Origin: Oscillospiraceae bacterium | Lineage (GTDB): Bacteria; Bacillota; Clostridia; Oscillospirales; Oscillospiraceae | Reading direction: 5' to 3' | NCBI GenBank assembly: GCA_902789745.1 | Contig: CADAPH010000004.1 | Coordinates: forward strand, 314 to 64,313 | Length of the DNA: 64,000 nucleotides | Shown: positions 1,999 through 30,773 of the stretch, one piece after another | Layout: every line of letters begins with the position of its first letter | Position numbering within the stretch: position 1 is the stretch's first letter | Notes under the pieces: generated by a model | What the model saw: the letters and a program-made list of their open reading frames with translations, nothing else | What the model was told of the DNA's origin: nothing | Database searches by the model: none | Translations under genes and position numbers: made by a program

Positions 1999-2592
1999 AT
2001 GAACGCCAAGGAGAAAATCGAAGAACTGCTGGAAGCGTCGGAGGACGGCACGATCACCGCAGCGCAGGTGACGGAAGCCGGGCTGCACCGCAGCGTTTTA
2101 CAGGAGTTTGTTAAGAGCGGCGAGATGTACCGCTTTGGGCGCGGTCTGTATGTGCGTAGCAGCGCATGGGAGGACGATTTCTACCTCTTGCAGCGCAAGT
2201 ATGGGCGCGGAATCTATTCGCACGATACCGCTCTGTATCTGCTGGGCTATTCAGACCGTACCCCGGCGAAATATACGATGACCTTTCCCAAGGGCTACAA
2301 TGCCCCGTCCTTGAAGCAGGAGAACCTAATCATCAAGCGCGTTGTGCCGGAAAACTACGAGTTCGGCAGAATTGAAATTGAATCCCCATCCGGCAATCCA
2401 ATTCGTGTTTATGATTTGGAACGGACGCTGTGTGACATTCTGCGCGGCAGCGGCAGCGATGTTCAGATCGTCGGAGAAGCTATGAAACGCTATGCAGCGT
2501 CCAAAGATAAGAATATTCACAAACTGATGCAGTACGCAGACCAGCTTCGCGTAAAGCCCAAGGTGCTGCGATACATGGAGGTTTTGCTATGA
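1999..2592 (+). CDS. abiEi: Type IV toxin-antitoxin / abortive infection antitoxin AbiEi
   Basis: ATG at 1999 follows the gaggtgag RBS. 'GTITAAQVTEAGLHRSVLQEFVKSGEMYRFGRGLY' winged-helix N-terminus and 'YDLERTLCDILR' are typical of AbiEi. ATGA overlap with the next gene. Confidence 0.85.
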   Translation: MNAKEKIEELLEASEDGTITAAQVTEAGLHRSVLQEFVKSGEMYRFGRGLYVRSSAWEDDFYLLQRKYGRGIYSHDTALYLLGYSDRTPAKYTMTFPKGYNAPSLKQENLIIKRVVPENYEFGRIEIESPSGNPIRVYDLERTLCDILRGSGSDVQIVGEAMKRYAASKDKNIHKLMQYADQLRVKPKVLRYMEVLL

Positions 2593-3434
2593 TTACAAAA
2601 AATCTGATGCAACTGAAAGCCTTTATCAAGAACAAAGCGGCAGAGAAGCATATCTCGGCGCAGCTCGTCATGCAGAACTATATGTTGGAACGGCTGCTGG
2701 AACGGATCTCGCTCTCGCCCTATAAGAACAATTTCATTCTCAAAGGCGGATTCCTGATCTCCGCCATTGTGGGACTGGACACGCGGGCAACAATGGATCT
2801 GGACACAACGATCAAGGGCTTCACCCTGACGCATGAAGCAATCCGCAAAATCTTTACAGAGATTTGCGCTGTCCAGATCGCCGACGACGTGCAGTTTGAG
2901 GTTATCGGCATCTCTGACATTCGGGAAACCGACGATTACCCCGGCATACGGGTCGCGCTGAAAGCGAACTATCCGCCGATCAGCGTACCGCTGACGGTGG
3001 ATGTCACCACGGGCGACATGATAACGCCCCGTGAGGTGGAATACACATTCTCCCTGCTGTTCGATGACCGCACGATCAGTATTCTTGCCTACAACCTTGA
3101 AACGGTACTGGCGGAAAAGCTGGAAACTGTGCTGTCCCGCAACATTGCGAATACCCGTCCGAGAGATTATTACGACGTACATATCCTGTACGCGCTGCGC
3201 GGCGCGGAATGTGACAAAGCGACGCTGCGCCGGGCACTGGAACGAACGACGCAGAAACGCGGCAGCGGCACGATCCTGACAGACTACCCGGAGATTATGA
3301 AAGAGATCCGCGAAAGCGATACGCTCCGTAGACTGTGGGAGAAATACAGCCGCGAGTATGAGTACGCAAAGGACATTTCCTTTGACGATACCTGTAATAC
3401 CATTCAGACGATTATGGACGCAATCATGGCGTAA
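2589..3434 (+). CDS. abiEii: AbiEii/AbiGii-family nucleotidyltransferase toxin
   Basis: 281 aa. 'FILKGGFLISAIVGLDTRATMDLD' NTase core; the position after AbiEi and the length are typical. Confidence 0.85.
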   Translation: MITKNLMQLKAFIKNKAAEKHISAQLVMQNYMLERLLERISLSPYKNNFILKGGFLISAIVGLDTRATMDLDTTIKGFTLTHEAIRKIFTEICAVQIADDVQFEVIGISDIRETDDYPGIRVALKANYPPISVPLTVDVTTGDMITPREVEYTFSLLFDDRTISILAYNLETVLAEKLETVLSRNIANTRPRDYYDVHILYALRGAECDKATLRRALERTTQKRGSGTILTDYPEIMKEIRESDTLRRLWEKYSREYEYAKDISFDDTCNTIQTIMDAIMA

Positions 3435-3452: not shown

Positions 3453-3845
3453 ATGGGTTGGTTGGCAGCGCAGGGCGCGATTATGGCGATTGGGCTTTTC
3501 ATTGGGCTTGTCTGCTCGGTGATCGGACTATTCTTTGGGCATATCATTCTCTTTGACAGCATCGCTCTCGGCATCGCCGCCGGAGTATGCTGCAATCAGT
3601 TCACCGCAATTCATCCGGCGCTGTGCCTTGTGATCGGCATTGCAACATTTCTGCTGCTGTTGTGGCTGCAAAATACCAGCATCGGCTTCTGGCTCGTCGG
3701 CGGACTGCTCACGCTGATCTATGCAGCGGTGTTCGGGCTGCTGGCCTACTTCATTTCGGAGCATGATCCCATCTGGGGCTGGGTGATTTTCGGTCTGGTG
3801 TTCCTCGTGGTCGGTGCGCTGCACCTACGCGCACGGGATAGCTGA
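3453..3845 (+). CDS. Small integral membrane protein (about 4 TM helices), function unknown
   Basis: 130 aa, almost entirely hydrophobic helices. RBS aaaggagg lies 6-13 nt upstream. Starts 18 nt after the abiEii stop. Confidence 0.6.
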   Translation: MGWLAAQGAIMAIGLFIGLVCSVIGLFFGHIILFDSIALGIAAGVCCNQFTAIHPALCLVIGIATFLLLLWLQNTSIGFWLVGGLLTLIYAAVFGLLAYFISEHDPIWGWVIFGLVFLVVGALHLRARDS

Positions 3846-4028
3846 AAGCAAGCGCAAAGTCACGGCTTAGAGTGCCTGTATGCCTTGCTGAGAGCGGCTT
3901 TACAGCGTGGAGGATGCAAGGGGCGTATGTTTTCCCTGCCAGTTATGAAAAACGAGTTTGAAAGCGTGACCGGAAAATGCAAGTACAGCATAAACAAGTT
4001 GGTTCTTCTCAAAATACGGAGGGGTTTT

Positions 4029-5384
4029 ATGAAAAAACGAGCAATTCTTTTTGGAATGTTCCACTACAATAGAAGCGCTTCAATTACAGCAAACGATCTA
4101 CCAAGCACAGAAATTGATGTAAAGACATTAGAAAAGAGATTAAAGCAGTTACAGTTTGAAACCGTTTCATATATGGATCTTTGCTTGAAAGATATGGAGC
4201 AAAAGATAACTGAATTTGCAGATACAGCTCCGTGTGATTCTCTGAATGTAGTATATTTCTCTGGACATGGCGGACACAGCAAAGGCGAGAACTATTTGTA
4301 TCCTGTGGATTTTGGGAATAGCTTGGATGCAAGAATGTCTATTGAAGATAGCGCATTTAATCTCAAACGAATCCAACCGCTTTTCAAAAGAAAAGTGAAG
4401 CTCTTGATAATTGTTGATGCCTGCCGCGACAAATTAAAGCCAGATTATGCTTGTAATTATTCGGAAATGGTCGCGCCACAAGATACATACATAGCCTACG
4501 CCACGCAATTTGGAGATTGCTCTGGTTGCACTCCAGCAATAAGCTATTTTACAGAAGCGTTATGCGACAATATCTTAACTCCGAACATCTCGGTTGATCG
4601 ACTGTTTACTGATGTGCGGGCTACTCTCTATTTGAAACACGGCAGACAAATATCAAACAGCGTAAACGGGTTTATGAGTGATATTTCTTTGAACGAACAG
4701 GCCGACCACGATAAAGTGGGAAATTTGGTTTTGCAGTTTGTGGATCACTATGGCGATATGTATGTTGATAAATATGGTCCCTTTGCAGGAGATGACTTAG
4801 TGTTCATAGATGCAGCACAATATTGTGGTATCAGTGTATTAGACGCAATCTATAAATTCCAAAAACTTGATGCAGAACGATGCCACGTTACCGATAGCCT
4901 TTCAGAAAGCCACAAAAAACTAATTGCATTTTGGGGAATGTTGGGGAACGGTTTAGCGCAGGATGAGTTTTATACATGGAAATACCGAGGACGACCTATA
5001 AGATTAGGAGAAATCCCACCGTTGCCATTAGATATGCAAAAACCTATGCCGGATGCTGGAAAAGAAATTGAAGTTGATTTTAAGCTCAATATAAAGCATG
5101 ATGGGATATACATTTCAACAAATCTACCAGATAACTACCAGCTTTTTGGAAAGATAAATGGCAGGTATTCATTCAACAACATCGTTGTTAAGAGTGGAAA
5201 CGCCCAAATACCTCTTTCTGATAAAATATCCGAGGTTTACGCAGTCGATTTGTATTCAGTTGTGCCTACTATTTCGGGAGTTGATAGCTCTATCATAGGA
5301 GAAAAGGCTCGAAATCTTGTGGGGCAATATGTAAAGTTTTCCCCAATCAGCGGAAACTCCATTGAATTTCATTACAAGAAATAA
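4029..5384 (+). CDS. Caspase-fold (peptidase C14) protease with an uncharacterised C-terminal domain of about 215 aa
   Basis: His-Cys dyad in canonical order, 'VVYFSGHGGH' then 'LLIIVDACRD', with beta1 'KRAILFGMFHY'. ATG at 4029 follows ggagggg; the track start at 3885 is a TTG extension. AT-rich relative to its flanks. Confidence 0.8.
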   Translation: MKKRAILFGMFHYNRSASITANDLPSTEIDVKTLEKRLKQLQFETVSYMDLCLKDMEQKITEFADTAPCDSLNVVYFSGHGGHSKGENYLYPVDFGNSLDARMSIEDSAFNLKRIQPLFKRKVKLLIIVDACRDKLKPDYACNYSEMVAPQDTYIAYATQFGDCSGCTPAISYFTEALCDNILTPNISVDRLFTDVRATLYLKHGRQISNSVNGFMSDISLNEQADHDKVGNLVLQFVDHYGDMYVDKYGPFAGDDLVFIDAAQYCGISVLDAIYKFQKLDAERCHVTDSLSESHKKLIAFWGMLGNGLAQDEFYTWKYRGRPIRLGEIPPLPLDMQKPMPDAGKEIEVDFKLNIKHDGIYISTNLPDNYQLFGKINGRYSFNNIVVKSGNAQIPLSDKISEVYAVDLYSVVPTISGVDSSIIGEKARNLVGQYVKFSPISGNSIEFHYKK

Positions 5385-5387
5385 AAA

Positions 5388-5436
5388 CGCGGGACGCAGC
5401 AGCCATCATCGGCTGCCGCGCCCCGCGTCGTCTTTT
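5388..5436. terminator. Stem-loop between convergent genes (bidirectional terminator-like)
   Basis: cgcgggacgcagcagcc-atcatc-ggctgccgcgccccgcg (two mismatches), followed by tcgtctttt. Confidence 0.55.
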
Positions 5437-5659
5437 ACTCTGCGTCGGAAAGCGTCATGGTGAACTGCGCTTCCTCAAATGCTGCGTCGGTCATGTTGTG
5501 CAGCTTATGGATCGTCTGCTCTGCCAGCGGGCGCATATCTGCGTCCATATCCGGCAGCGCGTCGGAAATCGCCGCAATCGTTCTGCGGTGGTCGTGCTTG
5601 TGATAAATGCAGATCAGGTTTTCTTCCTCAATGGTAAACGAAACATTGTCCATGCTCAT
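5435..5659 (-). CDS. Transposon-transfer assisting family protein (small ICE-conserved protein)
   Basis: 74 aa. 'EEENLICIY' and 'AISDALPDMD..MRPLAEQTIHKL' resemble this family. ATGA-coupled to the upstream gene. Confidence 0.65.
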   Translation of the reverse strand: MSMDNVSFTIEEENLICIYHKHDHRRTIAAISDALPDMDADMRPLAEQTIHKLHNMTDAAFEEAQFTMTLSDAE

Positions 5660-6609: not shown

Positions 6610-9600
6610 TCACTCCATTTCCAAAGCCTGCCGGATGCTCCGCTTGGTTTCCTGTTCCTTTTCCCGCTGCTGCGGCTTGCCGGACTGCACACGATCTGCT
6701 TTGAGCTGTGCGCGGATAGACGGCTTTTTGCCGTCCGGGTCGCGCTGCGGCGTTCTGCTGTCCTCGGCCTTGACCGCTGCGGCAAGCGCAGAGAGCGAAA
6801 TCACCTCGCCGCGCTTTGCCTTTTCTTCCAGCTCGTCCACGGACGGGGTGTTGTTGATCTGCCCGTCAATCATATTGTAGTTCTGCTCGGTGGACAGCTC
6901 CGCCGTGCGCATATAGTTTTCCTGTTCCCGCTGCTCGGCGGCAATGGCAAAGGCCTGTGTGCCGTTGCCCATGATAAGGTACTTGCCGTCATCGGTGCTG
7001 TGGTGATACCCATAGCCTGCGGCTTCCATCTGCTCACGGTTCATATCGGCAACATGGAAGCTGCCGCGCGGCGTTGAAATGCGCTCTCCGGTCAGGTGGG
7101 CGTCAGGGGCAGCGGATTCCTGCTGCTGGGCGCTGCGCTGCACGTCAATGGGCTTTTCCCCGGAGATAGGCTGAATACAGGAAATGTACCCTGCGGCGTA
7201 GTATGCGTTTTTATTAAGCTGGCGCTGCCATGCGCCGACGCTGGGTGCCCAGCGGAAGCCGTTTGCTTTCAGCTCGTCCCGCGCCGCTTCATCCGGCTTG
7301 CCGTCAAAGAACACTTGCAGACGGTTATCCGCTTTGTTTGCTTCCACGCGCCCGCCGTCAAATTCCCATCCGGCAAAATTGGTGTCCTCATGCTGCCGCA
7401 CCTGTTCAATGCGCCCACGGATGCGGCGAATCTCGGCATTGTTGTTGGAGAGCATATAGGCGGGATACGGCCGGCTCTTATCCAGATGCCAGGACTGCGC
7501 CATTTCCTGCTGCAATTTGGTGATCTGCTCCGGCGTCAGACTGGGGCAGCCCTCCAAAGTCTTATTCTTACGGAAATAGGCGTTGACGGCTTTCATGGTT
7601 TCCTGCGCCGATTCCAGCTTGACGAGCTTGGCTTCCAGCTTTGCCGCTGCCTGCGGGTCATCCATGCTGATACCGCCCATGCCTGTGCTGCGGATCTTGT
7701 CCAAAATCCCCTGAACATCCTGCCATTCCTGCATATTGCGGTCACGGGCGGCGTTTTGCTTCTCTTTCTTGCGAACGGGGAAATTGCTGCCGCCTGCAAC
7801 GAGGATCGAGGGAACACGGGCTTCAATGGCATAGTGGTCGTTCAGATTTTCCGCCAGCTTGCGGGCGTAGGTGTCCAGCAGCGCGTCAATTTTCTCATGG
7901 TACATGGGATCGACGCGCTCTTTCTGCCGCTGCGCAATCGCCGCTGCCTGATCTACCATCTGCCGATATTCGGCGGTGGCGCTGCCTGCGGCGTAGTCGC
8001 GGTAGCTGTTTGCATCGTTGGCACGGCGGGCAGCGCCCTCATTGATGGTGTAATACCTGACGGCGGTTTGCTCCGGCGCGGTATCTGCGGGCGGCGCTTT
8101 CTCCGGCTGCTCCTGTACGTCGGCGGGCTGCTCCTGCGGCTCGTAGCCATTGGCGGCATATTCCTCCACGGTCATGCCTGCGGCTTCGGCTTCCTGTGCG
8201 ATCTCACTTTCTACATGGGCTTTGTAGTCCTGAAGCTCTTTATCAAAATCGGAAAGCTGCGGCGGATCGGGCAAGTGATAATCGCCAGCGTTCAGCTTTT
8301 CCCGGCAAGCGTCCACATGAGCAAGAACTGCATGAAAATATGCCGTCTGCTCCGGCGTCAGATTTTCTCCATTTTCCAGCATATCCGCAGCGGTGCGCTC
8401 CTGCTCGGAGAGGTTACAATGCAGACGCATATACGGTACAAACTCGGTGAGAAGCGTTGCGCGCTCGGCCTTGTCCTTTTCCCACGCTTCCGCGCCCTCG
8501 TTGTGCAGCACAAAGTTTTTCCAGCTCTCGTCCTTGGCGTAGTATTCGTGATAGGCTTGGATATGGTCGATCAGAGCGCCGTCCCCGTCGCCAAAGTCCT
8601 GCCGCCCCTCGTAGCTGTCACGTTCCCCGTGGAATGTGCAGTCAATGCGGAATTTGGTTTTATCGTACCAGCCGCCTGTGTAACCGGGCTTCTCACGCTC
8701 GGAACGCTTTTCCTCGTCCAGCGCCTTAAAGAGCGCGTCGGCGCGGGCAAGTGGGAGCTGTTCACCCTCTTGCAGCTTATCGCTCTCGCTCCAAAGAATC
8801 GTCACGACGGGCTGCACCGCAGGATTAAGGGAGGTTGCTTCCTTGCCGGACACTTCCTCTTGGGCATGGAACATGGCAATCTGCTCGTCGCTCGCATAGG
8901 TCAGGTCGCCAAACTCCAAATCGTTCAGCTCGCCTTGGATCAGCGCAGCCAGCGATTCATACTGTCGGCTTTCAATCAGCACATCACCCAAATATTTTTC
9001 AATGCGGAAGTCCGCCAGGTTTGCGTATGCCTGAATGGGGACTTCATCATCCGTAACGGTCGTGTGTCCAATACCAACGGCGGACAGGTCGCTGAAATCT
9101 GCGCCGGAATGAAATTCTTCGCGGCAGTAATCGTCGATCAGCTTTTTCGCAAGCTCCAATTCAGCGCGTTCCCGTGCGGCGTCGCTCAGATGCAGAGAGT
9201 AAAGGCCGGAAACAGAGGAAAAGCCGACGTTGTTGAAAACATAGTCCACATCACTTTCTTTCAGCGCTCCGGCTGCGTAGTAATTTTCCCGCGTGGGTGT
9301 CGGGCTTACGCTGCCGGATGCAATGTCGTGATTCAAGCCCGTTTCCAAGTGCGTGCAGATTTTTCCGTCCACCGCCAGCGTCGCATAGTACCAACCTATG
9401 TAACCGTTGCTTTGCTGATCTGCGCCGTCGTTGAACTCCACATTCAGCAGCGTGTAGGGCTTCAAGCCCTTTTCTGCGGCAATGGCATTGTCCTGAAGCT
9501 CGCGTTCTTTGAGGGCGGTATAAGCAGTTTCCTTTGCAACGCGGATGATTTCAGGGTTATACCGCACCAATGCGCTATCGACAAGCTCCTGCTGTACCTT

Positions 9601-11853
9601 TTTGGTTTTGGCTTGCCGCGTCATGTGGTTGCCTAAAAACAGAGAGCTGCCGTTATCAAAGCGAAGGGAAATATCGCTTGTGCCGCGCCATTTTCCTGTG
9701 CAGGGCGAGGTTTCAATCGTGCCGGACGTGCAGCCGAACGCCTGCGCGATCACGCCGATTTTCTCCTGCATGGAGAGCGTTTCATACCGCTTGGCAATTT
9801 CAACAGCCTGTTTCTGTAACTCTGTCAGTGGTCGTTCCACTGGCGGAGCGTCAACCTGTGCTTCCTGCTGTGCGGCCTGCTCCGGCTGTAAAAACTCCGG
9901 CACTTCGGTATAGCCGCCGCGATCCAGATAGTGCGCCGTTTCCTGCTCGCCGCGATGCAGCACAATGACATCGGACATGGAAAGGCTATGCCCGGTAAAA
10001 TCCTGCGGCCTGTCCATATTGAAGCGAACGAAAATGTCCTCCAGCGTATCCGTATCGGAGAGCGGTGCGGTATAGACCAGCTCATAATTTTCGCGGTCAA
10101 CACGCAGCCCGGCGGCCTTTACCTGTTCCAGCGGCTCAAATCGGAGATCCCGCGTTGCGTCGCCGTCTTTAAGCTGATAAATGGAAAAGGTGTTCTCCGG
10201 CACATCCTGCGCAGCAGCCTGTTCCTGCTCTGCGGTGTGCTGCGCCTGAAGCTCTGCAAAATGCCCCTCGATTTCGGAAATAAGCTCGCTGGCGGCGGTG
10301 CGGATAGTTTCAAGGGATGCTTTCAGCTCCTTAATATCGCGGCCGCTGCTCCACCCGGCGACATAGCCAAAGGAGTAGTCCGACGTGTCCAGCCCGAAAT
10401 GCTGGCACACCGTATAGGCAACGCTTTCCGCCTGCACCTCGCGGGTGCTGCGGTCGGGGCGCTCCGCCTGCTCCGGCGCGTTCAGGTCAATATCGTGCAG
10501 CTTGGCATGGGCAATCTCGTGGATCGCCGTCTTAATGGTTTGCAGCTCGCTCATGCCGTCGTCAATGGCAATGCGCTTTTCTGCAAGGTCATAATAGCCG
10601 TGTGCGCTGCCGTCGATTTTTTCAAGTGTCACGGGAACGTGAGAGGTCAGCTTCAAGGCTCGCCAAAAGTCCTCGTACTGTTCCACATTGCCCGTGAGCG
10701 CGTCCACGGCAATGTCGGGAAGCTCCTTGCCCTCGGTCTGGCTCACATCGAATACCGACACCACCTTGAACGCCGGAATCGTCACCTCCTGCTGCTCCGT
10801 GACGGGCTTACCGTCTGCGCCGATGATGGGCTGCCCGGTGTCCGGGTCAGTTTTCGCCACATCCTTTTTGATTTTATAAGGTGCGGGCGCAAGGATTTTG
10901 ATGCCCTTTTCGCCGGATTTGACATGGCGTTCAAATTCGTCACGCCACTTTCCGTAGCCTGCGATAAGGGATGCGTCCGGCTTCTGCATGACAATCAGCA
11001 GCGTATTGTTCAGGCTGTAATTGTGGAAGCGGGACATGGCTTTCAGGTAATCCCGATACCTCTCACTTTCAAAAACCTCCTGTACGCCCTGTTCCAAATG
11101 CTCGGTGATCTCCTTGATTCTGCCCTGTGTGTCGGTGGCGTTCAGCACCAGCGGACGCACGGGGATTGGCTCGACAGGCAGCGCCGCGCCCTGCGGCAGC
11201 TCGTCCATATCCCGCTGGGGGCTGGGCTGCGCAGTCAGACGATATTCCTGCGGCACTTGGTTGGCTTTGTACCACTCCGCATAATCGTTGCCGTTATTGT
11301 AGACATAGCCATAATCGGTAAAAATGCCGCGATCCTCTTTAACCGCTTCGCGCCCATAGCTCTTGTAATCAAAGAACCTCTTGGCGGCATCCGGCAATTC
11401 CAGTTCGTCCAGATCGTCAATGAGGTAATGCCCGTAATCGTCGGAATTGTGTACGGTGGGATAAAGCCAGTAGCAGTCCAGATTGTGCGTCAGGTTGATT
11501 AAGTCCGCCGCGCTTGCCGCATGGTCGCCATACTGTGCGGCAGCGGCAAACTTGTCGCGTTCCTCGTTGCTGCGCTGGGTGAGCAGCGCGGCAAGATAGT
11601 TCAAATCGTCCAGACTTTCGCCGGGCTTCAAAGCTTCGCTCCACCCGTCCAGAGAGGAATGAAAGGCAGATACCTGATACTGTTCCGTGTCGCTCCCGTC
11701 TACGCCCAGCCGTTCAAAAACGGCTTTCATCGTTTCGGCGTCGGTGGGCAGCGATACCCATTCCGCAACAGGCGTTTCCTCGGTATGCCGTGCGGTGTTG
11801 ATAAGATATACTTCCAAAAGGTGTTCGTCCACGTCTGCGCTCCTTTCTGACAT
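6610..11853 (-). CDS. Large polyvalent protein: ArdA antirestriction + ArdC-like ssDNA-binding + zincin peptidase + YodL-like + DUF3560-like modules
   Basis: N-terminal ArdA-like 'EVYLINTARHTEE..AEWVSLP'. ArdC-N 'FHNYSLNNTLLIVMQKPDASLIAGYGKW'. Zincin 'HEIAHAKLHD'. YodL-like 'FSIYQLKD..FTGHSLSMSDVIVL'. DUF3560-like 'RLQVFFDGKPDEAARDELKANGFRWAPSVGAWQRQL'. The true start may be GTG at 11832, after the gaaaggag RBS. Confidence 0.9.
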   Translation of the reverse strand: MSERSADVDEHLLEVYLINTARHTEETPVAEWVSLPTDAETMKAVFERLGVDGSDTEQYQVSAFHSSLDGWSEALKPGESLDDLNYLAALLTQRSNEERDKFAAAAQYGDHAASAADLINLTHNLDCYWLYPTVHNSDDYGHYLIDDLDELELPDAAKRFFDYKSYGREAVKEDRGIFTDYGYVYNNGNDYAEWYKANQVPQEYRLTAQPSPQRDMDELPQGAALPVEPIPVRPLVLNATDTQGRIKEITEHLEQGVQEVFESERYRDYLKAMSRFHNYSLNNTLLIVMQKPDASLIAGYGKWRDEFERHVKSGEKGIKILAPAPYKIKKDVAKTDPDTGQPIIGADGKPVTEQQEVTIPAFKVVSVFDVSQTEGKELPDIAVDALTGNVEQYEDFWRALKLTSHVPVTLEKIDGSAHGYYDLAEKRIAIDDGMSELQTIKTAIHEIAHAKLHDIDLNAPEQAERPDRSTREVQAESVAYTVCQHFGLDTSDYSFGYVAGWSSGRDIKELKASLETIRTAASELISEIEGHFAELQAQHTAEQEQAAAQDVPENTFSIYQLKDGDATRDLRFEPLEQVKAAGLRVDRENYELVYTAPLSDTDTLEDIFVRFNMDRPQDFTGHSLSMSDVIVLHRGEQETAHYLDRGGYTEVPEFLQPEQAAQQEAQVDAPPVERPLTELQKQAVEIAKRYETLSMQEKIGVIAQAFGCTSGTIETSPCTGKWRGTSDISLRFDNGSSLFLGNHMTRQAKTKKVQQELVDSALVRYNPEIIRVAKETAYTALKERELQDNAIAAEKGLKPYTLLNVEFNDGADQQSNGYIGWYYATLAVDGKICTHLETGLNHDIASGSVSPTPTRENYYAAGALKESDVDYVFNNVGFSSVSGLYSLHLSDAARERAELELAKKLIDDYCREEFHSGADFSDLSAVGIGHTTVTDDEVPIQAYANLADFRIEKYLGDVLIESRQYESLAALIQGELNDLEFGDLTYASDEQIAMFHAQEEVSGKEATSLNPAVQPVVTILWSESDKLQEGEQLPLARADALFKALDEEKRSEREKPGYTGGWYDKTKFRIDCTFHGERDSYEGRQDFGDGDGALIDHIQAYHEYYAKDESWKNFVLHNEGAEAWEKDKAERATLLTEFVPYMRLHCNLSEQERTAADMLENGENLTPEQTAYFHAVLAHVDACREKLNAGDYHLPDPPQLSDFDKELQDYKAHVESEIAQEAEAAGMTVEEYAANGYEPQEQPADVQEQPEKAPPADTAPEQTAVRYYTINEGAARRANDANSYRDYAAGSATAEYRQMVDQAAAIAQRQKERVDPMYHEKIDALLDTYARKLAENLNDHYAIEARVPSILVAGGSNFPVRKKEKQNAARDRNMQEWQDVQGILDKIRSTGMGGISMDDPQAAAKLEAKLVKLESAQETMKAVNAYFRKNKTLEGCPSLTPEQITKLQQEMAQSWHLDKSRPYPAYMLSNNNAEIRRIRGRIEQVRQHEDTNFAGWEFDGGRVEANKADNRLQVFFDGKPDEAARDELKANGFRWAPSVGAWQRQLNKNAYYAAGYISCIQPISGEKPIDVQRSAQQQESAAPDAHLTGERISTPRGSFHVADMNREQMEAAGYGYHHSTDDGKYLIMGNGTQAFAIAAEQREQENYMRTAELSTEQNYNMIDGQINNTPSVDELEEKAKRGEVISLSALAAAVKAEDSRTPQRDPDGKKPSIRAQLKADRVQSGKPQQREKEQETKRSIRQALEME

Positions 11854-16014: not shown

Positions 16015-18189
16015 TTAGTTGTACGGCGGTCTGGCGTAGGCGTAGAAATGTGCCTGCCAATAGCTGCTGTTCAGGTTGGAATAGGAAATCGGATCTCCGC
16101 AATGGATCATCATGGAATTGCCGACGTAGATTCCCACATGGCTAACGCCCGGAGTATCGTATGTCCCGACGAAAAACACGAGGTCGCCCGGCTGCGGGTT
16201 GGAAACAGGGGTGGAAATATTGTAAAGCCCCTGTGCGCCCAGTCTGCCCGTATTGCACACGCCGCTGTTTGTCAGCACCCAGCTCACGAAGCCGGAGCAG
16301 TCAAAGGAGGTGGACGGGCTGCTGCCGCCCCACACATAGGGGTACCCTAAATATTTTTCGGCTTCTGTGATAACGGCGGCAAAGGTTTCGTCCTCCATTG
16401 CAGAGGGCGGGATCTCATATCCCTCTGGGCGGTTTGTGATGTACTTGGGGATATACTCGCTATCCCCGAACAGCTCCGGCTTGTTGCCCAACACCGACAT
16501 ATACAGCGCATATTTGGACAGCGTTTCTTCGTCCATGATATAAACGGGGATATGCGAGAGATTGAAGTTTTCCAGCTCGACGGCGCAGATGTAGTAGTTA
16601 TACGGAACTTCTACCTCGTACTTGTTGCCCGCGCTGTCTGTCCGGGTAACGGTGCGGTAGCGCACCTCGGTCACGACGGTTTCTGTGAGAATATATTGCT
16701 TTTCAAAGAGCATTTGCAGCGTCCCCTGCACCTCGCTTGCCGTCCATGCGCCGTCATGCAGCGCGGAGAGGATCGATGCCAGGACATAAGGATCGTGTTT
16801 GATCTCGTCAAGGTCATAGTGGTATTCGTCGTAATCATGGGTGCGTTCATAGGTGTCGAGATATTCTTGCAGCTCGGCTTCCAGCGCACAGTAGGCGGCT
16901 TCGGCGGCAAGAATGTCCGCGTCCTCCGACTGATAGCTGGATGCCGCCACACCGCCGCCAGCCGCGCCCACCAGCGCAGAGCAGGATTGCAGCCCGCCGA
17001 TCAGCATGACAATCAGCAGGAAACCAGCCAGAACGACCAGCACACCTTTCCAATGGCGGGCAACGAACTCCGCTGCTTCCTTTGCCTTTTCTGCCGCTTT
17101 TTTCGCTGCCGTCGCCGTGGCTTCTACGGTTTTTTCGGCGCTTTTGGCGGTTGCCTGCGCGGTGCTGCCCGCAGCCTTTGCCGTTCTTGCAGCCTTGGCA
17201 TACTCACGCTTTAGACGCTGCTTCTGGAAAAAGCGATTAAGCGGATTGCCGGAGAGCATTTCAGGGTTATCATGCAGCGCCTTTTGGTAGAGATATTCTG
17301 CATTGGCATTTAAGGCTTTGCGCTCGGCCTTTTCCGCAGCGCGGTAGGGTTTCAGCTTGCGGTGACGGCGCTCCCAGCGAATTGCACCGCCTGCGCCATG
17401 CTCGGCAAATTCCTCTGCCTTATGCCCGCTTTCCACACCGACGTTTTCATGCTCGACCTCATGGATTTTTCCGTGCGCCTGTACTGCGACCTCCCGCAGC
17501 GGACGGCCTAACGGATTCGGTTTCAGCTTGGGCGGGGACTTATCCACGGTATCAAAGCGCAGTTTGATCTTGGCTGTGCCGCTGACTTCATCAAAAACGC
17601 GCTCCTTGCGCAGCACCCGTTTCTTGGGGATCGCTGTCTGCGCCGCATCCAGCTTGTCGGCGGCCTTTTCCGCACGGTGGATATGCTTGTGCAGCTCCGG
17701 CGCGGCGCGTTCTTCCTCGGAAAACTGCAAATGGGATGCAGAATACCGCTGCTGCGCCGCGTCGCGGGACATCTGCGCTACCTGCCGCGCCTTGTGCGCG
17801 TTATGCTCTGCGGCTGCACGGTCAATGAGCTTTTCCACTGTACCACCCGGCGCGGCGGACGTTGGAATATCCTGCGGGATATGGGAAATGGGGCTGCCAC
17901 TCTGCGGCTGAAACGGCTCGGCGCTAGGCTGCTGCGGTTTTGGCTGCTCCTTTTCCGGCTCTTTTTGCTCCTGTGGGCGGAGCTGCCGCCCGTGCTTGGG
18001 GGCGGCCTCTGCCGAATTCATAGGTGCGTCGCGTTTTCCCATCTGGACAGGCTGCCCATCCGGGGAAAGCTGCTTTTCCGCGTCACGCTCGGAAATATGG
18101 ATTTCTTCACCCGTGGTCTGATTGTCCAGCACCGCGCCGTCGCGGGTCATGCGCTGGGTGAGCTTATCGCGGGGCTTAAATTCTTTCAA
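16015..18189 (-). CDS. Conjugation-associated cell-wall hydrolase (NlpC/P60 C40 peptidase C-terminus, TM segment, long linker)
   Basis: 724 aa. C-terminal 'YPYVWGGSSPSTSFDCSGFVSWV...GVSHVGIYVG', the NlpC/P60 Cys/His motif. Confidence 0.9.
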   Translation of the reverse strand: MKEFKPRDKLTQRMTRDGAVLDNQTTGEEIHISERDAEKQLSPDGQPVQMGKRDAPMNSAEAAPKHGRQLRPQEQKEPEKEQPKPQQPSAEPFQPQSGSPISHIPQDIPTSAAPGGTVEKLIDRAAAEHNAHKARQVAQMSRDAAQQRYSASHLQFSEEERAAPELHKHIHRAEKAADKLDAAQTAIPKKRVLRKERVFDEVSGTAKIKLRFDTVDKSPPKLKPNPLGRPLREVAVQAHGKIHEVEHENVGVESGHKAEEFAEHGAGGAIRWERRHRKLKPYRAAEKAERKALNANAEYLYQKALHDNPEMLSGNPLNRFFQKQRLKREYAKAARTAKAAGSTAQATAKSAEKTVEATATAAKKAAEKAKEAAEFVARHWKGVLVVLAGFLLIVMLIGGLQSCSALVGAAGGGVAASSYQSEDADILAAEAAYCALEAELQEYLDTYERTHDYDEYHYDLDEIKHDPYVLASILSALHDGAWTASEVQGTLQMLFEKQYILTETVVTEVRYRTVTRTDSAGNKYEVEVPYNYYICAVELENFNLSHIPVYIMDEETLSKYALYMSVLGNKPELFGDSEYIPKYITNRPEGYEIPPSAMEDETFAAVITEAEKYLGYPYVWGGSSPSTSFDCSGFVSWVLTNSGVCNTGRLGAQGLYNISTPVSNPQPGDLVFFVGTYDTPGVSHVGIYVGNSMMIHCGDPISYSNLNSSYWQAHFYAYARPPYN

Positions 18190-19139
18190 TGGGTATCACC
18201 TCCGATCCGTTCCCGTGCAAGGGAACAAAACTCCGTGTTCAGTTCAATGCCGATGTAATGCCTGCCGTGCCGCTTCGCCGCAAGCCCCGTTGTGCCGCTG
18301 CCCATGAACGGATCAAGGACAATGCCACCCTTGGGACAGCCCGCCAGAATACAGGTTTCTGCCAGCAGGGGCGGATAGGCGGCAAAATGCCCGCCCTTGT
18401 AAGGCACGGTGTTGATAAACCACACATCGCGCTTTGCCCGGACGGGTGAGATCATGTCGTCGGTGATGCTGCCTTTTTCCCTCGGCTTATTGATATTCTG
18501 TGTCTGCGGCTGTCCCGGCACGGGTGCGGAATACTTGCCCACGCCGCGCCCAGCCTTTTTGCGCAGGGCGGTCGTGGGGGCAATGGGTTCAGCAATGGCA
18601 AGCCAGTCATAGAAATAACGTCTGCTCTTGGTGAACATGAAAATATGCTCATGGCTGCGGGTGCAGCGGTCTTTGGTACTTTCCGGCATAGGATTTCCCT
18701 TTGCCCAGATTATGTCGTTGCGCAGATACCAGCCGTCGGCGCGGAGCGCAAAGGCCAGCATCCACGGAATCCCGATCATGTCCTTTTGCTTGCAGCCCCG
18801 CACCGCTTGGCAGAGGGAAATGCTCTGCCCGTTGCGTCCCTGCGGATATTTGGGGTCGCGGGTATCGCCCTTGCTGCCTGTGCCGCAATAGCTGTCTGCG
18901 ATATTTACCCACAAAGTTCCATCCGGGCGCAGCACCCGGCGCACCTCGCGGAATACCGCTGTCAGCCGCGAAATGTATTCCTCCGGCGTAGCTTCCTGCC
19001 CGATCTGTGCGTCCATGCCGTAATCCCGCAGCCCGTAGTAGGGCGGCGAGGTCACGCAGCAATGAACGCTGCTTTCCGGCAGGGCTTTCAGCATATTCAG
19101 ACTGTCGCCGCAGAGGATGGTATCAAGCTCCATCGTCAT
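18186..19139 (-). CDS. Orphan DNA methyltransferase (N6_N4 MTase family, beta-class motif order)
   Basis: 317 aa. Motif IV 'CCVTSPPYYGL' is N-terminal and motif I 'VLDPFMGSGTT' is C-terminal. No restriction endonuclease nearby. Confidence 0.85.
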   Translation of the reverse strand: MTMELDTILCGDSLNMLKALPESSVHCCVTSPPYYGLRDYGMDAQIGQEATPEEYISRLTAVFREVRRVLRPDGTLWVNIADSYCGTGSKGDTRDPKYPQGRNGQSISLCQAVRGCKQKDMIGIPWMLAFALRADGWYLRNDIIWAKGNPMPESTKDRCTRSHEHIFMFTKSRRYFYDWLAIAEPIAPTTALRKKAGRGVGKYSAPVPGQPQTQNINKPREKGSITDDMISPVRAKRDVWFINTVPYKGGHFAAYPPLLAETCILAGCPKGGIVLDPFMGSGTTGLAAKRHGRHYIGIELNTEFCSLARERIGGDTH

Positions 19140-21902: not shown

Positions 21903-22466
21903 CTAACTCCTTTCCGCAAGTGTAATATCGCTTGCAATTTCATTGCCCCATGCGTCCCAGCCCGGCGTTTTCTGCCGGGCGAACAGCTCCACGCGGGGCA
22001 GATTGCCCATGAGCGCAAGAATTTTGTTCCGCGCTTCATCCGGCTTTTTACTGTGCTGCTCAATGGGACTGATGATAAACTGATGTACGCCTGCCGACTG
22101 CCGCTTGGGTTTGCCCTTGGTCGCCAGCAGACAGATTTCCGCATTGCTGCGCGTCCAGTAGCCCATGCCATAAAACCACGACGGGCTTTTCCGGTTGCGT
22201 TTGAGCCAGACGAACGCCACGGTTTTATACCGAAAGCCCCATGCGCGAATCAGATGCAGAGCTTCGGATAGCTGCGGAAAGGTCGCCCAGAGAAACAGGG
22301 CGCAGTCCTTCGCCGCCAACTCCGGCACGGGCAGGGCGCACAGCTCGTCAATGCTCATGGTGGAATAGTGATTTTCTGCCGCGCCCTGCACCTTCCTCTG
22401 CTCATAGCGCCACGGTGGGTCTGCGTAAATGATGTTGTACGTTCCGATAGGCAAGCCCTCCGTCAA
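21903..22466 (-). CDS. MT-A70-family N6-adenine DNA methyltransferase (orphan)
   Basis: 'YNIIYADPPWRYE' DPPW motif. The ORF upstream of 22466 overlaps the VirB6-like gene, so I place the start at TTG 22466 (TTGA overlap). Start is uncertain. Confidence 0.75.
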   Translation of the reverse strand: MTEGLPIGTYNIIYADPPWRYEQRKVQGAAENHYSTMSIDELCALPVPELAAKDCALFLWATFPQLSEALHLIRAWGFRYKTVAFVWLKRNRKSPSWFYGMGYWTRSNAEICLLATKGKPKRQSAGVHQFIISPIEQHSKKPDEARNKILALMGNLPRVELFARQKTPGWDAWGNEIASDITLAERS

Positions 22467-23326
22467 TGGGCGCTGAACACGGCCTTTGCCATACTGCCCG
22501 TTTTGAACAGACAGAAACACAGCAGCACCGTATAGCCCATTGCCAGCCAAATTGCGCCGGACACGTCGCCCGTCGCGGAAATGCTCTGGATCAAGACCGA
22601 GTAGATGCCCACGACCACCATAATCAAGAACGCCTGAAAGCCCAGCGCCAGCAGAGATTTCAGATAGTTTTGCCCGACATTGCGCCATTCTCCGTTTGTC
22701 ATGGTAGCAAGCGGGATGGGTCCCAACGAGGTCACAAGATATATTTCAATCATTCTCCCGTAGACCACCAGCATAATGCAGATGGAAAGAATGTTCATCG
22801 TCAGCCCGACAAACAGAGATTGAAACCACAGTCCAATCAGTCCGCCAAGGCTCATAGCTTCCAGCGACGTTTGCAGATCACCCACAATGGAATCTATGTC
22901 AATGCTGGTATTGCCGATTATCACGCCTGCGCTCTGATTGACGACCTGCTGCGCTGCATCAAAAACGCCCATGACGATATTCCAAGTGTTCGTGACAATC
23001 AGAACAGCCGCGTAAGTTTTGAACACCCATTTGAAGAACATAAAGGTGTCAATATCGTGCAGATTATTTTTCTCTGTCACCATCTGGATCAGCTCGTAGG
23101 TCATTACAAATGCAAGAATTGCACCCGCAATCGGGATAATGACGGATTCAGACAGGTTGCGGATCATATTGAAAATGCCGGAGTTCCAGCCCTGCGGCGT
23201 CGCTCCAACATCAGCGGCAATTTCACCCACCTTTGTATTCACCGTATCGAACAGCCCCGACAGGTTGCCGATGATTCCGTCGATCAGAACGCCCTTAAAC
23301 CATTCCTCCAGCCAATCAATAATCAA
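22463..23326 (-). CDS. VirB6/TrbL-like polytopic membrane conjugation protein
   Basis: 287 aa with multiple TM helices. Position between Maff2 and the PrgI/VirB4 genes. Confidence 0.75.
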   Translation of the reverse strand: MIIDWLEEWFKGVLIDGIIGNLSGLFDTVNTKVGEIAADVGATPQGWNSGIFNMIRNLSESVIIPIAGAILAFVMTYELIQMVTEKNNLHDIDTFMFFKWVFKTYAAVLIVTNTWNIVMGVFDAAQQVVNQSAGVIIGNTSIDIDSIVGDLQTSLEAMSLGGLIGLWFQSLFVGLTMNILSICIMLVVYGRMIEIYLVTSLGPIPLATMTNGEWRNVGQNYLKSLLALGFQAFLIMVVVGIYSVLIQSISATGDVSGAIWLAMGYTVLLCFCLFKTGSMAKAVFSAH

Positions 23327-29510: not shown

Positions 29511-30773
29511 TTACAGGTTCAGGAGCGCGGCGGCGGCAGAGCCAGCCAGTGTGGTCTCATACCCTACAGTGAAATGAACGTTCCGATTCAGCTGATCCCG
29601 GATCACCTGACGAACAAGCTCTTCCAGCAGCGGGTGATAGACTCTCCCCTTCTGCACCAGAGATCCCTCAGCGCAGATGGACACGTTCTTTTCCCCAGAG
29701 AGCAGGGCGATGGCGGCCAGATTGGTGCACATGCAGCGGGCGGAACGCTCAAACATGGCGGCGCAGAGGGTCTGCACAAATGCGGCGTCCTCCTCGCCGA
29801 CGCTGATGTCCTCCAGCTTCTCCCCCATGGCCCAGGCATCGATGACCGCAGAGTCGATCCAGCCGAGAGCCTTTACCTTTTCACAGCTTTCGGGAGAGAG
29901 CAATCCCTCCGCGGCGGCATGCTGCAGCATGCGGTGGCAGAGCTCGCCCAGGTACACACCGGCGGTGATCTTCTCAAAGTGCTTGATGCCGGGGTTGTGA
30001 CTGGCCTCATCCAGCTCCCGGTCAAAATCGCCCCGGGGCATCCCTTCATACATGCCGGATTCCAGGTTCACGATCATGCGCCGCTCGCCGCTGCGGCCCA
30101 GCTTGCCGATCCGGTTTTCCGGCAGGGAGCAGCAGGTATTGGTACCGGTGCCGCTGACCTGTCCGATGGCGCAGCCGCCCTCATCATCTCCGGAAGCGAG
30201 GCCGCCCAGCAGCACCGCAACGGTATCGTTCAGGATGACGATCTTCTTCCCGGTGACGCCGCGCTTTTCCAGCTCCCGCAGCAGGGAGGCGCCCACCAGC
30301 TGCCCCTCGCAGCCGGTGATGACCACTTCCTTGTCGATCCGCTGGACCCTGCCGTCCATCTCCGGGGTAATGTCCGCAGAGTAGGAGAAGCAGAAGCCGA
30401 TCTTGTCAGTCTCCTTCATCAGAGGCTCAATGGCGTCCGCCGTGAAGCGGATGAAGTCCTCCCAGGTGGCAGGGGCTTCGATGCCCGGCATCTTCCATTT
30501 GCGCATCTGTTCCACCTGGCAGCCTTCCGAGGTAAACCGCACCAGGCCGCAACGGAAATTTGTGCCGCCTGCGTCGATCACGACCACAGGTTCGTTTAGC
30601 GGGATCTGTCCCGCATCGCTGAGGTAAGTGGGGATCATGGGAAGAGAGCCGCCCTTGCCCGCAAGACCCAGAGCCATTTCCTCCGCCATTTTTGCCGCCT
30701 CCCGGGCGGGATCGATCCCATCGGGACTCATGCCGTGCTTTTCCAGAAACCGCAGTGCTTTTTCGCTGCTCAT
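29511..30773 (-). CDS. Hexokinase-family sugar kinase (eukaryote-type hexokinase fold)
   Basis: 420 aa. 'VVVIDAGGTNFRCGLV', 'IGFCFSY', 'ILNDTVAVLLGG'. Confidence 0.8.
   Translation of the reverse strand: MSSEKALRFLEKHGMSPDGIDPAREAAKMAEEMALGLAGKGGSLPMIPTYLSDAGQIPLNEPVVVIDAGGTNFRCGLVRFTSEGCQVEQMRKWKMPGIEAPATWEDFIRFTADAIEPLMKETDKIGFCFSYSADITPEMDGRVQRIDKEVVITGCEGQLVGASLLRELEKRGVTGKKIVILNDTVAVLLGGLASGDDEGGCAIGQVSGTGTNTCCSLPENRIGKLGRSGERRMIVNLESGMYEGMPRGDFDRELDEASHNPGIKHFEKITAGVYLGELCHRMLQHAAAEGLLSPESCEKVKALGWIDSAVIDAWAMGEKLEDISVGEEDAAFVQTLCAAMFERSARCMCTNLAAIALLSGEKNVSICAEGSLVQKGRVYHPLLEELVRQVIRDQLNRNVHFTVGYETTLAGSAAAALLNL

Follow-up and report, generated by a model that had tools for sequence, protein, structure and literature searches.

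Caspase-like proteases are established executioners in bacterial immunity. To our knowledge, those that have been characterised all depend on an infection-sensing partner, namely, a TIR protein, CRISPR, or a gasdermin/NLR context. Type IV Thoeris has a caspase-like effector, which is known as ThsE or PsCaspase (Rousset et al. 2025, bioRxiv 10.1101/2024.10.24.620036) and as TipB of 'Tianpeng' (bioRxiv 10.1101/2024.12.27.630466). In this system, an adjacent TIR gene makes N7-cADPR, and Arg specificity has been demonstrated for PsCaspase (10.1101/2024.10.24.620036). The effector then cuts broadly after basic residues, and this halts the infected cell (bioRxiv 10.1101/2024.10.24.620036). Here we describe a gene for a caspase-fold protease joined to a C-terminal domain (CTD) without a known family, which we call caspase-CTD. 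It is carried by an integrative and conjugative element (ICE) in a 64,000-nucleotide (nt) stretch of DNA from an Oscillospiraceae bacterium (NCBI GenBank assembly GCA_902789745.1, contig CADAPH010000004.1, positions 314 to 64,313 of the forward strand). This whole stretch is the window, and all coordinates refer to it unless a locus is named. Bacterial immune caspases as such were already known. New here is a putative stand-alone caspase-like conflict effector carrying a new domain: its architecture is partner-less, its C-terminal module is common to PIN nucleases and lipoproteins, and it occupies a cleanly bounded, highly polymorphic hotspot of a gut ICE.

By general architecture, caspase-CTD comes closest to the caspase of type IV Thoeris, but only one locus related to ours has TIR genes. 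Like caspase-CTD, the Thoeris effector occurs in many cases on mobile elements and within defence islands. Its specificity also has a parallel in the predicted preference of caspase-CTD for Arg/Lys. However, the adjacent TIR gene that defines type IV Thoeris was not found in the window and, among the contexts examined, occurred only near one homologue (P0035, loci L053/L054). PADLOC v2.0.0, which dates from 2023 and predates the 2024 type IV Thoeris preprint, did not place the protein in any system, and its only match was partial (PDLC02987 'caspase', E value 5e-4, residues 54-134). A first-pass annotation, made from the letters of the window alone, had judged that this was not a described defence system, and the PADLOC result agrees. 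A literature search found no published description of the caspase-CTD family or its C-terminal module. Four proteobacterial caspases considered as candidates for ThsE were rejected. P0115 is secreted and linked to an OmpA-like gene, one on a Leisingera plasmid adjoins an OmpA gene, one on a Klebsiella plasmid is a 589-amino-acid (aa) caspase with no TIR among its annotated neighbours, and one on an Edwardsiella plasmid is a short gene between insertion sequences.

Gasdermin-activating proteases, the SAVED-CHAT/PCaspase and Craspase proteases of type III CRISPR, and EACC1-associated caspases have the same clan CD fold and are death or dormancy effectors or triggers in conflict, the kind of role proposed here for caspase-CTD. 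However, they have an adjacent gasdermin, CRISPR-Cas/SAVED-CHAT, or EACC1/NTPase partner, and none is found at caspase-CTD. We rejected a bacterial gasdermin system (no gasdermin neighbour in the window and no conserved neighbour in 25 related loci), a type III CRISPR-associated protease (annotation of the neighbours at the loci examined gave no cas, SAVED, or CHAT genes), and an EACC1-associated caspase (NCBIfam NF047832, caspase_w_EACC1; 23 bits against a cut-off of 140). The first-pass annotation had seen no gasdermin, STAND, TPR, or CRISPR partner nearby. Scans of the window and the 25 related loci extended this to any conserved partner.

A caspase-fold protease with a portable C-terminal domain

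The caspase-CTD gene is real and intact. It has the following features.

4029..5384, + strand: caspase-CTD gene, ATG start, 451 aa plus stop (open reading frame [ORF] listing)
4018..4022, + strand: Shine-Dalgarno sequence GGAGG, 6 nt 5' of the ATG (read from the sequence)
4029..4703, + strand: Peptidase_C14 (caspase-fold) domain, residues 1-225 (Pfam, Foldseek, conservation)
4116-4118, 4266-4268, 4416-4418, and 4422-4424, + strand: codons for Asp30, His80, Asp130, and Cys132, respectively
4713..4943, + strand: CTD subdomain 1, four-helix bundle, residues ~229-305, motif GDDLxFIDAAQY (AlphaFold2 models, conservation)
4944..5063, + strand: CTD connector, short beta strands and the invariant TWxYxGRxIRxGEIPPLPxxMQ, residues ~306-345 (conservation, AlphaFold2)
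5064..5381, + strand: CTD subdomain 2, Ig/FN3-like beta-sandwich, residues ~346-451, motifs TNLPDN and GxxxRNLxGxYVKxxPIxGN (AlphaFold2)

The ORF listing also offers an in-frame TTG start at 3885 (499 aa). Homologues on unrelated backbones all begin with MKK, and DNA homology to their genes starts at 4011-4028. Therefore, the true start is the ATG at 4029, and the ribosome-binding site (RBS) ascribed to the gene in the first-pass annotation lies where expected. Three starts in frame with the ORF (a conserved backbone ATG at 3945, reading MKNEFESVT..., an ATG at 3927, and the TTG at 3885) explain why gene callers give N-terminally extended forms of 485 aa (P0001) or 499 aa. The gene is AT-rich, as had been noticed from its letters. 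Its G+C content is 0.389, against 0.52 and 0.56 in the 5-kb flanks, and along the sequence the value is 0.38-0.43 over 4001-5500, with flanks at 0.52-0.59. Both halves are under purifying selection (nonsynonymous differences, pN, 0.13-0.19 versus synonymous differences, pS, 0.70-0.83).

The protease half was assigned by several methods. Pfam Peptidase_C14 (PF00656) matched residues 3-209 with an E value of 1.7e-26 (93.8 bits; cut-off, 21.4). The motifs KRAILFGMFHY, VVYFSGHGGH (containing His80), and LLIIVDACRD (containing Cys132) are present, and His80, Cys132, Asp30, and Asp130 are invariant across an alignment of 43 homologues. The first match among PDB sequences was the MALT1 paracaspase (E value 2.7e-7 with the single sequence and 1.5e-13 with a family profile), with caspases next. 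In a HMMER alignment to the PDB sequence, H80, C132, D30, and D130 align with MALT1 H415, C464, D365, and D462. From MALT1 structural papers, we take D365 and D462 to line the Arg-binding S1 pocket. An AlphaFold2 model of the full-length protein, built on the 43 homologues, had a mean predicted local distance difference test score (pLDDT) of 89.8. Foldseek again placed MALT1 first for the protease half (E value 2e-16), with a template-modelling (TM) score of 0.81 to the isolated caspase domain 3v4o_A. The earlier reading of a caspase/C14 protease with its catalytic dyad in the right order is thus upheld by Pfam, the MALT1 alignment, and Foldseek. The protease is predicted to be of the Arg/Lys-specific paracaspase/metacaspase/orthocaspase type.

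The N-terminus has no signal peptide. From residue 3 onward it is beta-strand 1 of the fold, so the protein lacks an export signal. A secreted or surface clan CD protease of the gingipain kind was rejected on this ground, as signal peptide and sorting signal are absent. Among the relatives of the CTD, only the lipoproteins, which lack a protease, have hydrophobic leaders.

Human MALT1 (PDB 3v4o, 3uo8) is the best match to the protease half in both sequence and fold, with the dyad and two S1 acids in common, and in both proteins the protease precedes an Ig-like beta-sandwich (Ig3 in MALT1). MALT1 Ig3 regulates activity allosterically, and MALT1 is activated by dimerisation rather than cleavage. 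However, identity is ~14-22%, and a four-helix bundle separates protease and sandwich in caspase-CTD. The orientation of the sandwich is not superposable (TM ~0.5 for the caspase-Ig3 chains versus 0.81 for the caspase alone). Caspase-CTD also has no death domain or further Ig domains, and it is bacterial and in a mobile context.

Residues ~226-451 had no match in Pfam, NCBIfam, PHROGs, PADLOC, or the PDB (sequence and profile). Modelled alone with AlphaFold2, the CTD gave a confident structure (pLDDT 92.8; predicted TM score [pTM] 0.80). Foldseek found no significant match for this fold in the PDB or in the viral models of BFVD, and the best were generic FN3/Ig sandwiches (E value 0.045). This was the structural check that the first-pass annotation had proposed for a half that it could not place. 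It was right that this half cannot be assigned with these libraries, but the CTD is not an orphan. It is a recurring module.

In the 43-sequence alignment, the CTD is conserved as strongly as the protease and has invariant residues and motifs of its own. A CTD-only profile had 130 representative matches among 1.84 billion proteins, and the domain occurs in three settings. It is C-terminal to caspase domains of at least two subfamilies, which are the ~451-aa family and proteins of ~470-485 aa such as P0147 (Clostridium felsineum) and P0136 (Xanthomarina). It is C-terminal to PIN_8 nuclease domains in ~690-aa proteins. Finally, it stands behind a signal peptide, lipobox, or membrane anchor in ~29 proteins of ~260-375 aa. 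A lipoprotein query independently recovered the CTD of a plasmid caspase (E value 8e-9). The CTD is a discrete, portable domain with alternative enzymatic heads, absent from the domain libraries searched, and it can also work outside the cell, in lipoproteins. Pairing with alternative enzymatic heads is typical of sensor or regulatory modules in conflict proteins, and the CTD may be likened to these.

Three observations concern individual members. A 691-aa PIN_8-CTD fusion of Clostridium beijerinckii (L059:6001-8076) lies in an island that also holds an rve transposase, a 928-aa SMC-like protein, a HATPase_c_3 protein, and an integrase. A 283-aa lipoprotein composed of a lipobox leader and the CTD (L060:299-2426; also L061 and L062) is encoded directly 3' of a phage-type integrase. 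Superinfection-exclusion genes lie just downstream of the integrase in temperate phages of Gram-positive bacteria, and we considered whether CTD lipoproteins might be prophage exclusion proteins. We rejected this, because it has this single context and no other support and no sequenced phage carries the lipoprotein. Finally, one copy of the caspase-CTD gene (L142:1531-2886) differs from that of the window (4029-5384) with a synonymous divergence of 0.14 in the caspase half and 0.007 in the CTD half. This points to a mosaic allele, with intragenic recombination at about the domain boundary.

The cargo slot and the mobility of the gene

The surroundings of the gene belong to the ICE backbone, with the following boundaries.

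3453..3845, + strand: orf130, backbone gene directly 5' of the slot, 130 aa, no family match; protein 98-100% identical in 80 metagenome loci
3846..3970, + strand: left flank of the slot, backbone intergenic, ending ...GAAAGCGTGAC; 84-100% conserved in the 80 copies whatever the cargo
3971..5382, + strand: cargo cassette, 58-nt leader with RBS and then the caspase-CTD ORF (alignment with other-cargo loci and L134)
5386..5429, no strand assigned: G+C-rich hairpin with a 20-bp stem, backbone, right flank of the slot (terminator scan); 94-100% conserved whatever the cargo
5435..5659, - strand: TTRAP (putative transposon-transfer assisting protein), backbone gene converging on the slot (Pfam PF14203, E value 4.8e-22)

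With orf130 we retrieved 80 metagenomic copies of the backbone (loci L069-L148), nearly all labelled human gut. The backbone runs AbiEii, orf130, the first 125 nt of the spacer, hairpin, TTRAP, and orf316, and it is 93-100% identical, whereas the content between spacer and hairpin varies. The junctions are identical for all cargos: the left one follows 3970 (3970/3971; ...GAAAGCGTGAC), and the right one is at 5383 (5382/5383; AAAAACGCGGG...). At a near-empty site (L134), only 9-12 nt lie between them.

A 617-aa PIN_12 protein was the most frequent occupant (29 of the 80 loci), and the caspase was found in 14 of the 80. The others were a 373-aa PLD-like (PLDc_2) protein (6 loci), a sigma/anti-sigma pair, once with VanZ (6-7 loci), a 402-aa SEC-C-motif protein (4 loci), and two proteins without known family, of 307 aa (3 loci) and 496 aa (2 loci). 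Larger inserts contained a serine recombinase, a UvrA-like ATPase, an ABC ATPase, and others. Nearly all inserts are AT-rich (0.37-0.43 G+C), and three of the larger ones have 0.48-0.60. One slot (L077) retains only a 188-nt remnant of the caspase gene. The caspase is one of about ten interchangeable AT-rich cargos in a single, precisely bounded hotspot directly 3' of AbiEi/AbiEii. Conserved flanks, variable content, and a near-empty sister site are what a mobile-element hotspot would have. They also confirm the cargo position beside AbiE that had been proposed from the window alone, as the same backbone carries other genes or almost nothing at the exact site.

The PIN_12 cargo protein consists of its N-terminal PIN_12 domain and ~430 aa without an assignable family. 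We found no shared CTD in the alternative cargos of the hotspot, and none of the main ones matches a PADLOC system. Each is a candidate single-gene system.

Known defence-cargo hotspots include hotspot 5 of the SXT ICE and those of P2 and P4, and defence systems occur on integrated elements generally. As in these hotspots, the slot has conserved, sharp flanks and interchangeable, compositionally foreign contents, many of them single-gene and nuclease-type, beside a known Abi system. It differs in that it lies in a Gram-positive gut Clostridial ICE, holds non-defence genes too, and has main cargos that have not been described as systems.

A sigma-70 scan found no promoter-like sequence between 3846 and 4028, which includes the cassette leader, and Rfam matches in and around the cassette were at chance level only. 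Expression probably comes from the backbone, either by read-through of the relaxase-AbiE-orf130 operon or from the conserved 125-nt flank. The stem-loop that had been assigned to the gene as its own terminator does exist, at 5386-5429, but it belongs to the ICE backbone and not to the cassette. The terminator scan assigns it to the convergent minus-strand TTRAP gene. Lying between the convergent cargo and TTRAP genes, it probably stops transcription both ways and may also end the caspase transcript. The mini-ORF start at 3945 precedes each cargo in the hotspot and is present at the empty site too. The mini-ORF may encode a leader peptide, may be left over from an ancestral cargo, or may belong to the insertion site.

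The gene is not confined to this backbone. A protein search found ~108 full-length homologues (37-98% identity), followed by a gap and then proteins matching the caspase half only. A scan of species-representative genomes had 23 full-length loci, all in Bacillota except one metagenome-assembled genome (MAG) labelled Alphaproteobacteria (L018). The host genera were Gemmiger (99%), Flintibacter, Traorella, Lachnoclostridium, Ruminococcus, Blautia, Clostridium, Vagococcus, and Ethanoligenens. All-against-all BLAST of the ORFs within 6 kb at 25 loci revealed no conserved partner gene beyond the caspase itself. When the window was compared with three other backbones, DNA similarity was confined to 4011/4028-5371/5384. 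The gene has 0.29-0.39 G+C in hosts where its flanks have between 0.24 and 0.58. Thus a bare ORF with its RBS, of low-G+C origin, moves among Bacillota ICEs, plasmids, and small integrative islets.

These settings are diverse. A second, unrelated conjugative element (P0085) has the caspase between a polyvalent methylase-helicase protein and a DUF3991/Toprim-NikA-relaxase, and it encodes a coupling protein too. Another context has a coupling protein, RepA_N, a reverse transcriptase, DUF3800, and Fic. In a small serine-recombinase islet, an Xre-type helix-turn-helix (HTH) gene (117 aa) lies 99 nt upstream of the caspase on the same strand, divergent from replication/recombination genes. The caspase accompanies DUF4238, AbiH, and a serine recombinase in a chromosomal islet of C. 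perfringens and an RdRP-family protein in an integrase islet. It adjoins ParA on a non-mobilizable Clostridium estertheticum plasmid and MobC and relaxase genes at L011 and L013. At 16 further loci, the neighbours included recombinases, relaxases, SIR2/Dsr1-like, ThsA-like, and CBASS-like proteins, and methyltransferases. The neighbourhood comparison suggested by the first-pass annotation therefore placed the family in ICEs, plasmids, and recombinase-bearing islets, often with defence genes, and with no neighbour shared by all 25 loci. Searches of INPHARED phages and IMG/VR found no homologue of the caspase, of the CTD, or of its lipoprotein relative.

Proposed function and rival explanations

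We propose that caspase-CTD is a self-contained, single-polypeptide sensor-effector abortive-infection protease that cleaves after Arg/Lys, and we put the probability of this at about 0.5. It would be a cytoplasmic conflict protein, with a catalytically competent C14 head and a regulatory or sensor CTD of ~225 residues. The CTD would hold the protease inactive until it binds a trigger that an invading phage or a rival mobile element supplies. Binding would lead to dimerisation or oligomerisation, the way in which caspases and MALT1 are generally activated. Once active, the protease would cut many cellular or invader proteins after Arg/Lys, and the infection would be aborted. Such a one-gene system would benefit the ICE by protecting its host. 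The context is supportive, in that the gene is found on mobile elements with defence-type neighbours, often AbiE, AbiH, Dsr1-like, TIR, or reverse-transcriptase genes.

Several points weigh against this proposal. The hotspot also carries the sigma/anti-sigma and VanZ, ABC-ATPase, UvrA-like, and recombinase genes. Because it is not purely defensive, the company of defence genes is no more than moderate evidence. PADLOC has no model that covers the protein. The proximity of the slot to the relaxase and the ArdA/ArdC polyvalent protein would also be compatible with an anti-defence function. Because the CTD is also found in extracellular lipoproteins, its ligand need not be phage-derived. No equivalent was mapped for E500, MALT1's third S1 acid; the loop where it would fall aligns poorly. 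Finally, autoinhibition is a conjecture, because the relative orientation of protease and CTD was modelled without confidence (pTM 0.52).

Other explanations place the trigger or the target elsewhere. The protein might be an orphan, TIR-less relative of the type IV Thoeris effector (ThsE/TipB) whose CTD binds a nucleotide signal, e.g., N7-cADPR, that would turn the protease on. The signal would come from a TIR protein of the invader or from one encoded at another site in the host. The general architecture is shared, and His80/Cys132 in the window compare with His81/Cys131 of TipB. The caspase gene of P0035, whose product is 56% identical, lies 0.8-1.9 kb upstream of two TIR genes, and Firmicute type IV Thoeris often has two. 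The distant relative P0147 (26% identity over its full length; E value 3e-32) comes from Clostridium felsineum and C. tyrobutyricum, and Rousset Table S1 lists type IV Thoeris in Clostridium roseum. Clostridium roseum is a close relative of C. felsineum. However, phmmer with the two TIR proteins of L053 found no TIR in the 64-kb window or in the fetched loci other than L053/L054, and no neighbour is conserved in the 25 loci. P0136 has no ORF in the 245-330 nt available upstream, where all three of its contigs end, and its downstream genes do not encode TIR proteins. In addition, a CTD with the same motifs is found in exported lipoproteins, which cannot meet a cytoplasmic nucleotide. We consider this explanation unlikely. 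A quite unlikely one is that the protease serves the conjugative element in anti-defence or establishment. It would then be produced early on in the recipient and would cleave host defence or exclusion proteins. The position of the gene between the relaxase (543-1877) and the 1747-aa ArdA/ArdC/M78 polyvalent protein (6610-11853) would suit this, as would the similar placement of P0085 in an unrelated conjugative element and the MobC and relaxase neighbours at L011 and L013. Non-conjugative settings suit the family just as well, though: the C. perfringens islet, the serine- and tyrosine-recombinase islets, the non-mobilizable plasmid, and a position 8 nt after a probable Dsr1-like gene. The immediate upstream operon partner in the window is AbiE, a defence or toxin-antitoxin module, and the commonest alternative cargos are nuclease-domain proteins of 370-620 aa, atypical of small anti-defence proteins.

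A role outside conflict seems improbable to us. It would make the protein an accessory protease for stress-triggered proteolysis, for processing of element or envelope proteins, or, as an ImmA-like anti-repressor, for cutting an Xre repressor to control excision or transfer. One islet family does have the Xre-type gene 99 nt upstream, which resembles immR-immA, the CTD is common to lipoproteins without an assigned function, and the hotspot also holds regulators and transport/resistance genes. However, an HTH gene is directly upstream in one element family only (3 of the 25 clustered loci and one variant) and is absent in the window. Movement of the gene alone between unrelated backbones is hard to square with an element-encoded cognate repressor or substrate, and the protein has no signal peptide. 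Doubtful, in our view, is a wider suggestion about the CTD. The helical bundle and Ig-like sandwich might form a new portable recognition domain that directly binds a conserved protein of phages or mobile elements. Fused to a caspase or PIN domain, it would give one-protein receptors that kill or arrest the infected cell, and as a lipoprotein it would block entry.

If caspase-CTD is the self-contained abortive-infection protease that we propose, then this bare single-gene family would show how a caspase and a sensor domain can be directly coupled, and the known defence modules would gain a new domain. If the CTD is a recognition domain, then caspase-CTD would be a bacterial caspase immune receptor that does without NTPase, TIR, and CRISPR partners, a MALT1-like 'sensor plus caspase' in minimal form. 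If it is an orphan Thoeris effector, this would point to effectors that answer immune signals from genes encoded elsewhere in the cell. The hotspot is a natural experiment, as the same gut-metagenome backbone is found with the caspase, PIN, PLD, or other genes or with almost nothing. Its variants allow the effects of cargo on phage sensitivity, plasmid entry, and ICE fitness to be compared in an isogenic background.

Other genes of the element and related loci

The best genome match to the conjugative element was a Gemmiger MAG. Genes beyond those bordering the slot include the following.

543-1877, + strand: MobA/VirD2 relaxase (Pfam)
1807-2592, + strand: AbiEi (Pfam; PADLOC E value 3.5e-69)
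2589-3434, + strand: AbiEii (Pfam; PADLOC E value 1.2e-104)
6610-11853, - strand: polyvalent protein, 1747 aa, with ArdA, ArdC N-terminal, M78/IrrE-like peptidase, YodL, LPD25, and DUF4316 (domain scan)
29511-30773: hexokinase, first scanned gene beyond the DUF6017 gene (domain scan)

AbiEi and AbiEii are a type IV toxin-antitoxin or abortive-infection pair. In its longest form, the AbiEi ORF shares 71 nt (1807-1877) with the 3' end of the relaxase gene, and the AbiEi domains start only at residue ~64; the true start is probably further downstream than 1807. The polyvalent protein is a large anti-restriction protein, two genes past the cargo slot. The element also encodes a topoisomerase III, a CD1107-like protein, an NlpC/P60 hydrolase, a VirB4-like ATPase, a coupling protein, and a DUF6017/HTH_36 replication-type protein. 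The hexokinase gene is presumably chromosomal. Two DNA methyltransferase genes, N6_N4_Mtase and MT-A70, lie in the transfer cluster on the minus strand (18186-19139 and 21903-22688). Both are probably orphan methylases, shielding the element during entry.

The locus of P0035 (L053:7001-11581; also L054) was the sole context with TIR genes among those examined. Its gene order is caspase, a 123-aa gene, a 52-aa gene, a gene for a 303-aa TIR protein on the opposite strand, and one for a 434-aa TIR protein. This may be a type IV-Thoeris-like arrangement. The surrounding tyrosine-recombinase islet also carries RloB/AAA_21 and a tyrosine-recombinase trio. At two other loci (L017:5240-9268 and L031:3381-7409), a 1343-aa ORF ends 8 nt before the caspase start. 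A PDB sequence search with its product had no match; judging from member counts, this product probably corresponds to the SIR2_2/Dsr1-like protein of the pooled scans.

The Xre-caspase serine-recombinase islet (L005-L009 and L050-L052) lies in polysaccharide-synthesis loci, with most copies flanked by short Bac_transf ORFs (58-83 aa), as if the islet had inserted into a Bac_transf gene. Its protein is indexed in more than 100 assembly-collection blocks (158 for P0053 and 107 for P0078). This islet has a second variable slot, which holds either a PRTase-CE protein and a glyoxalase or a 439-aa protein without known family.

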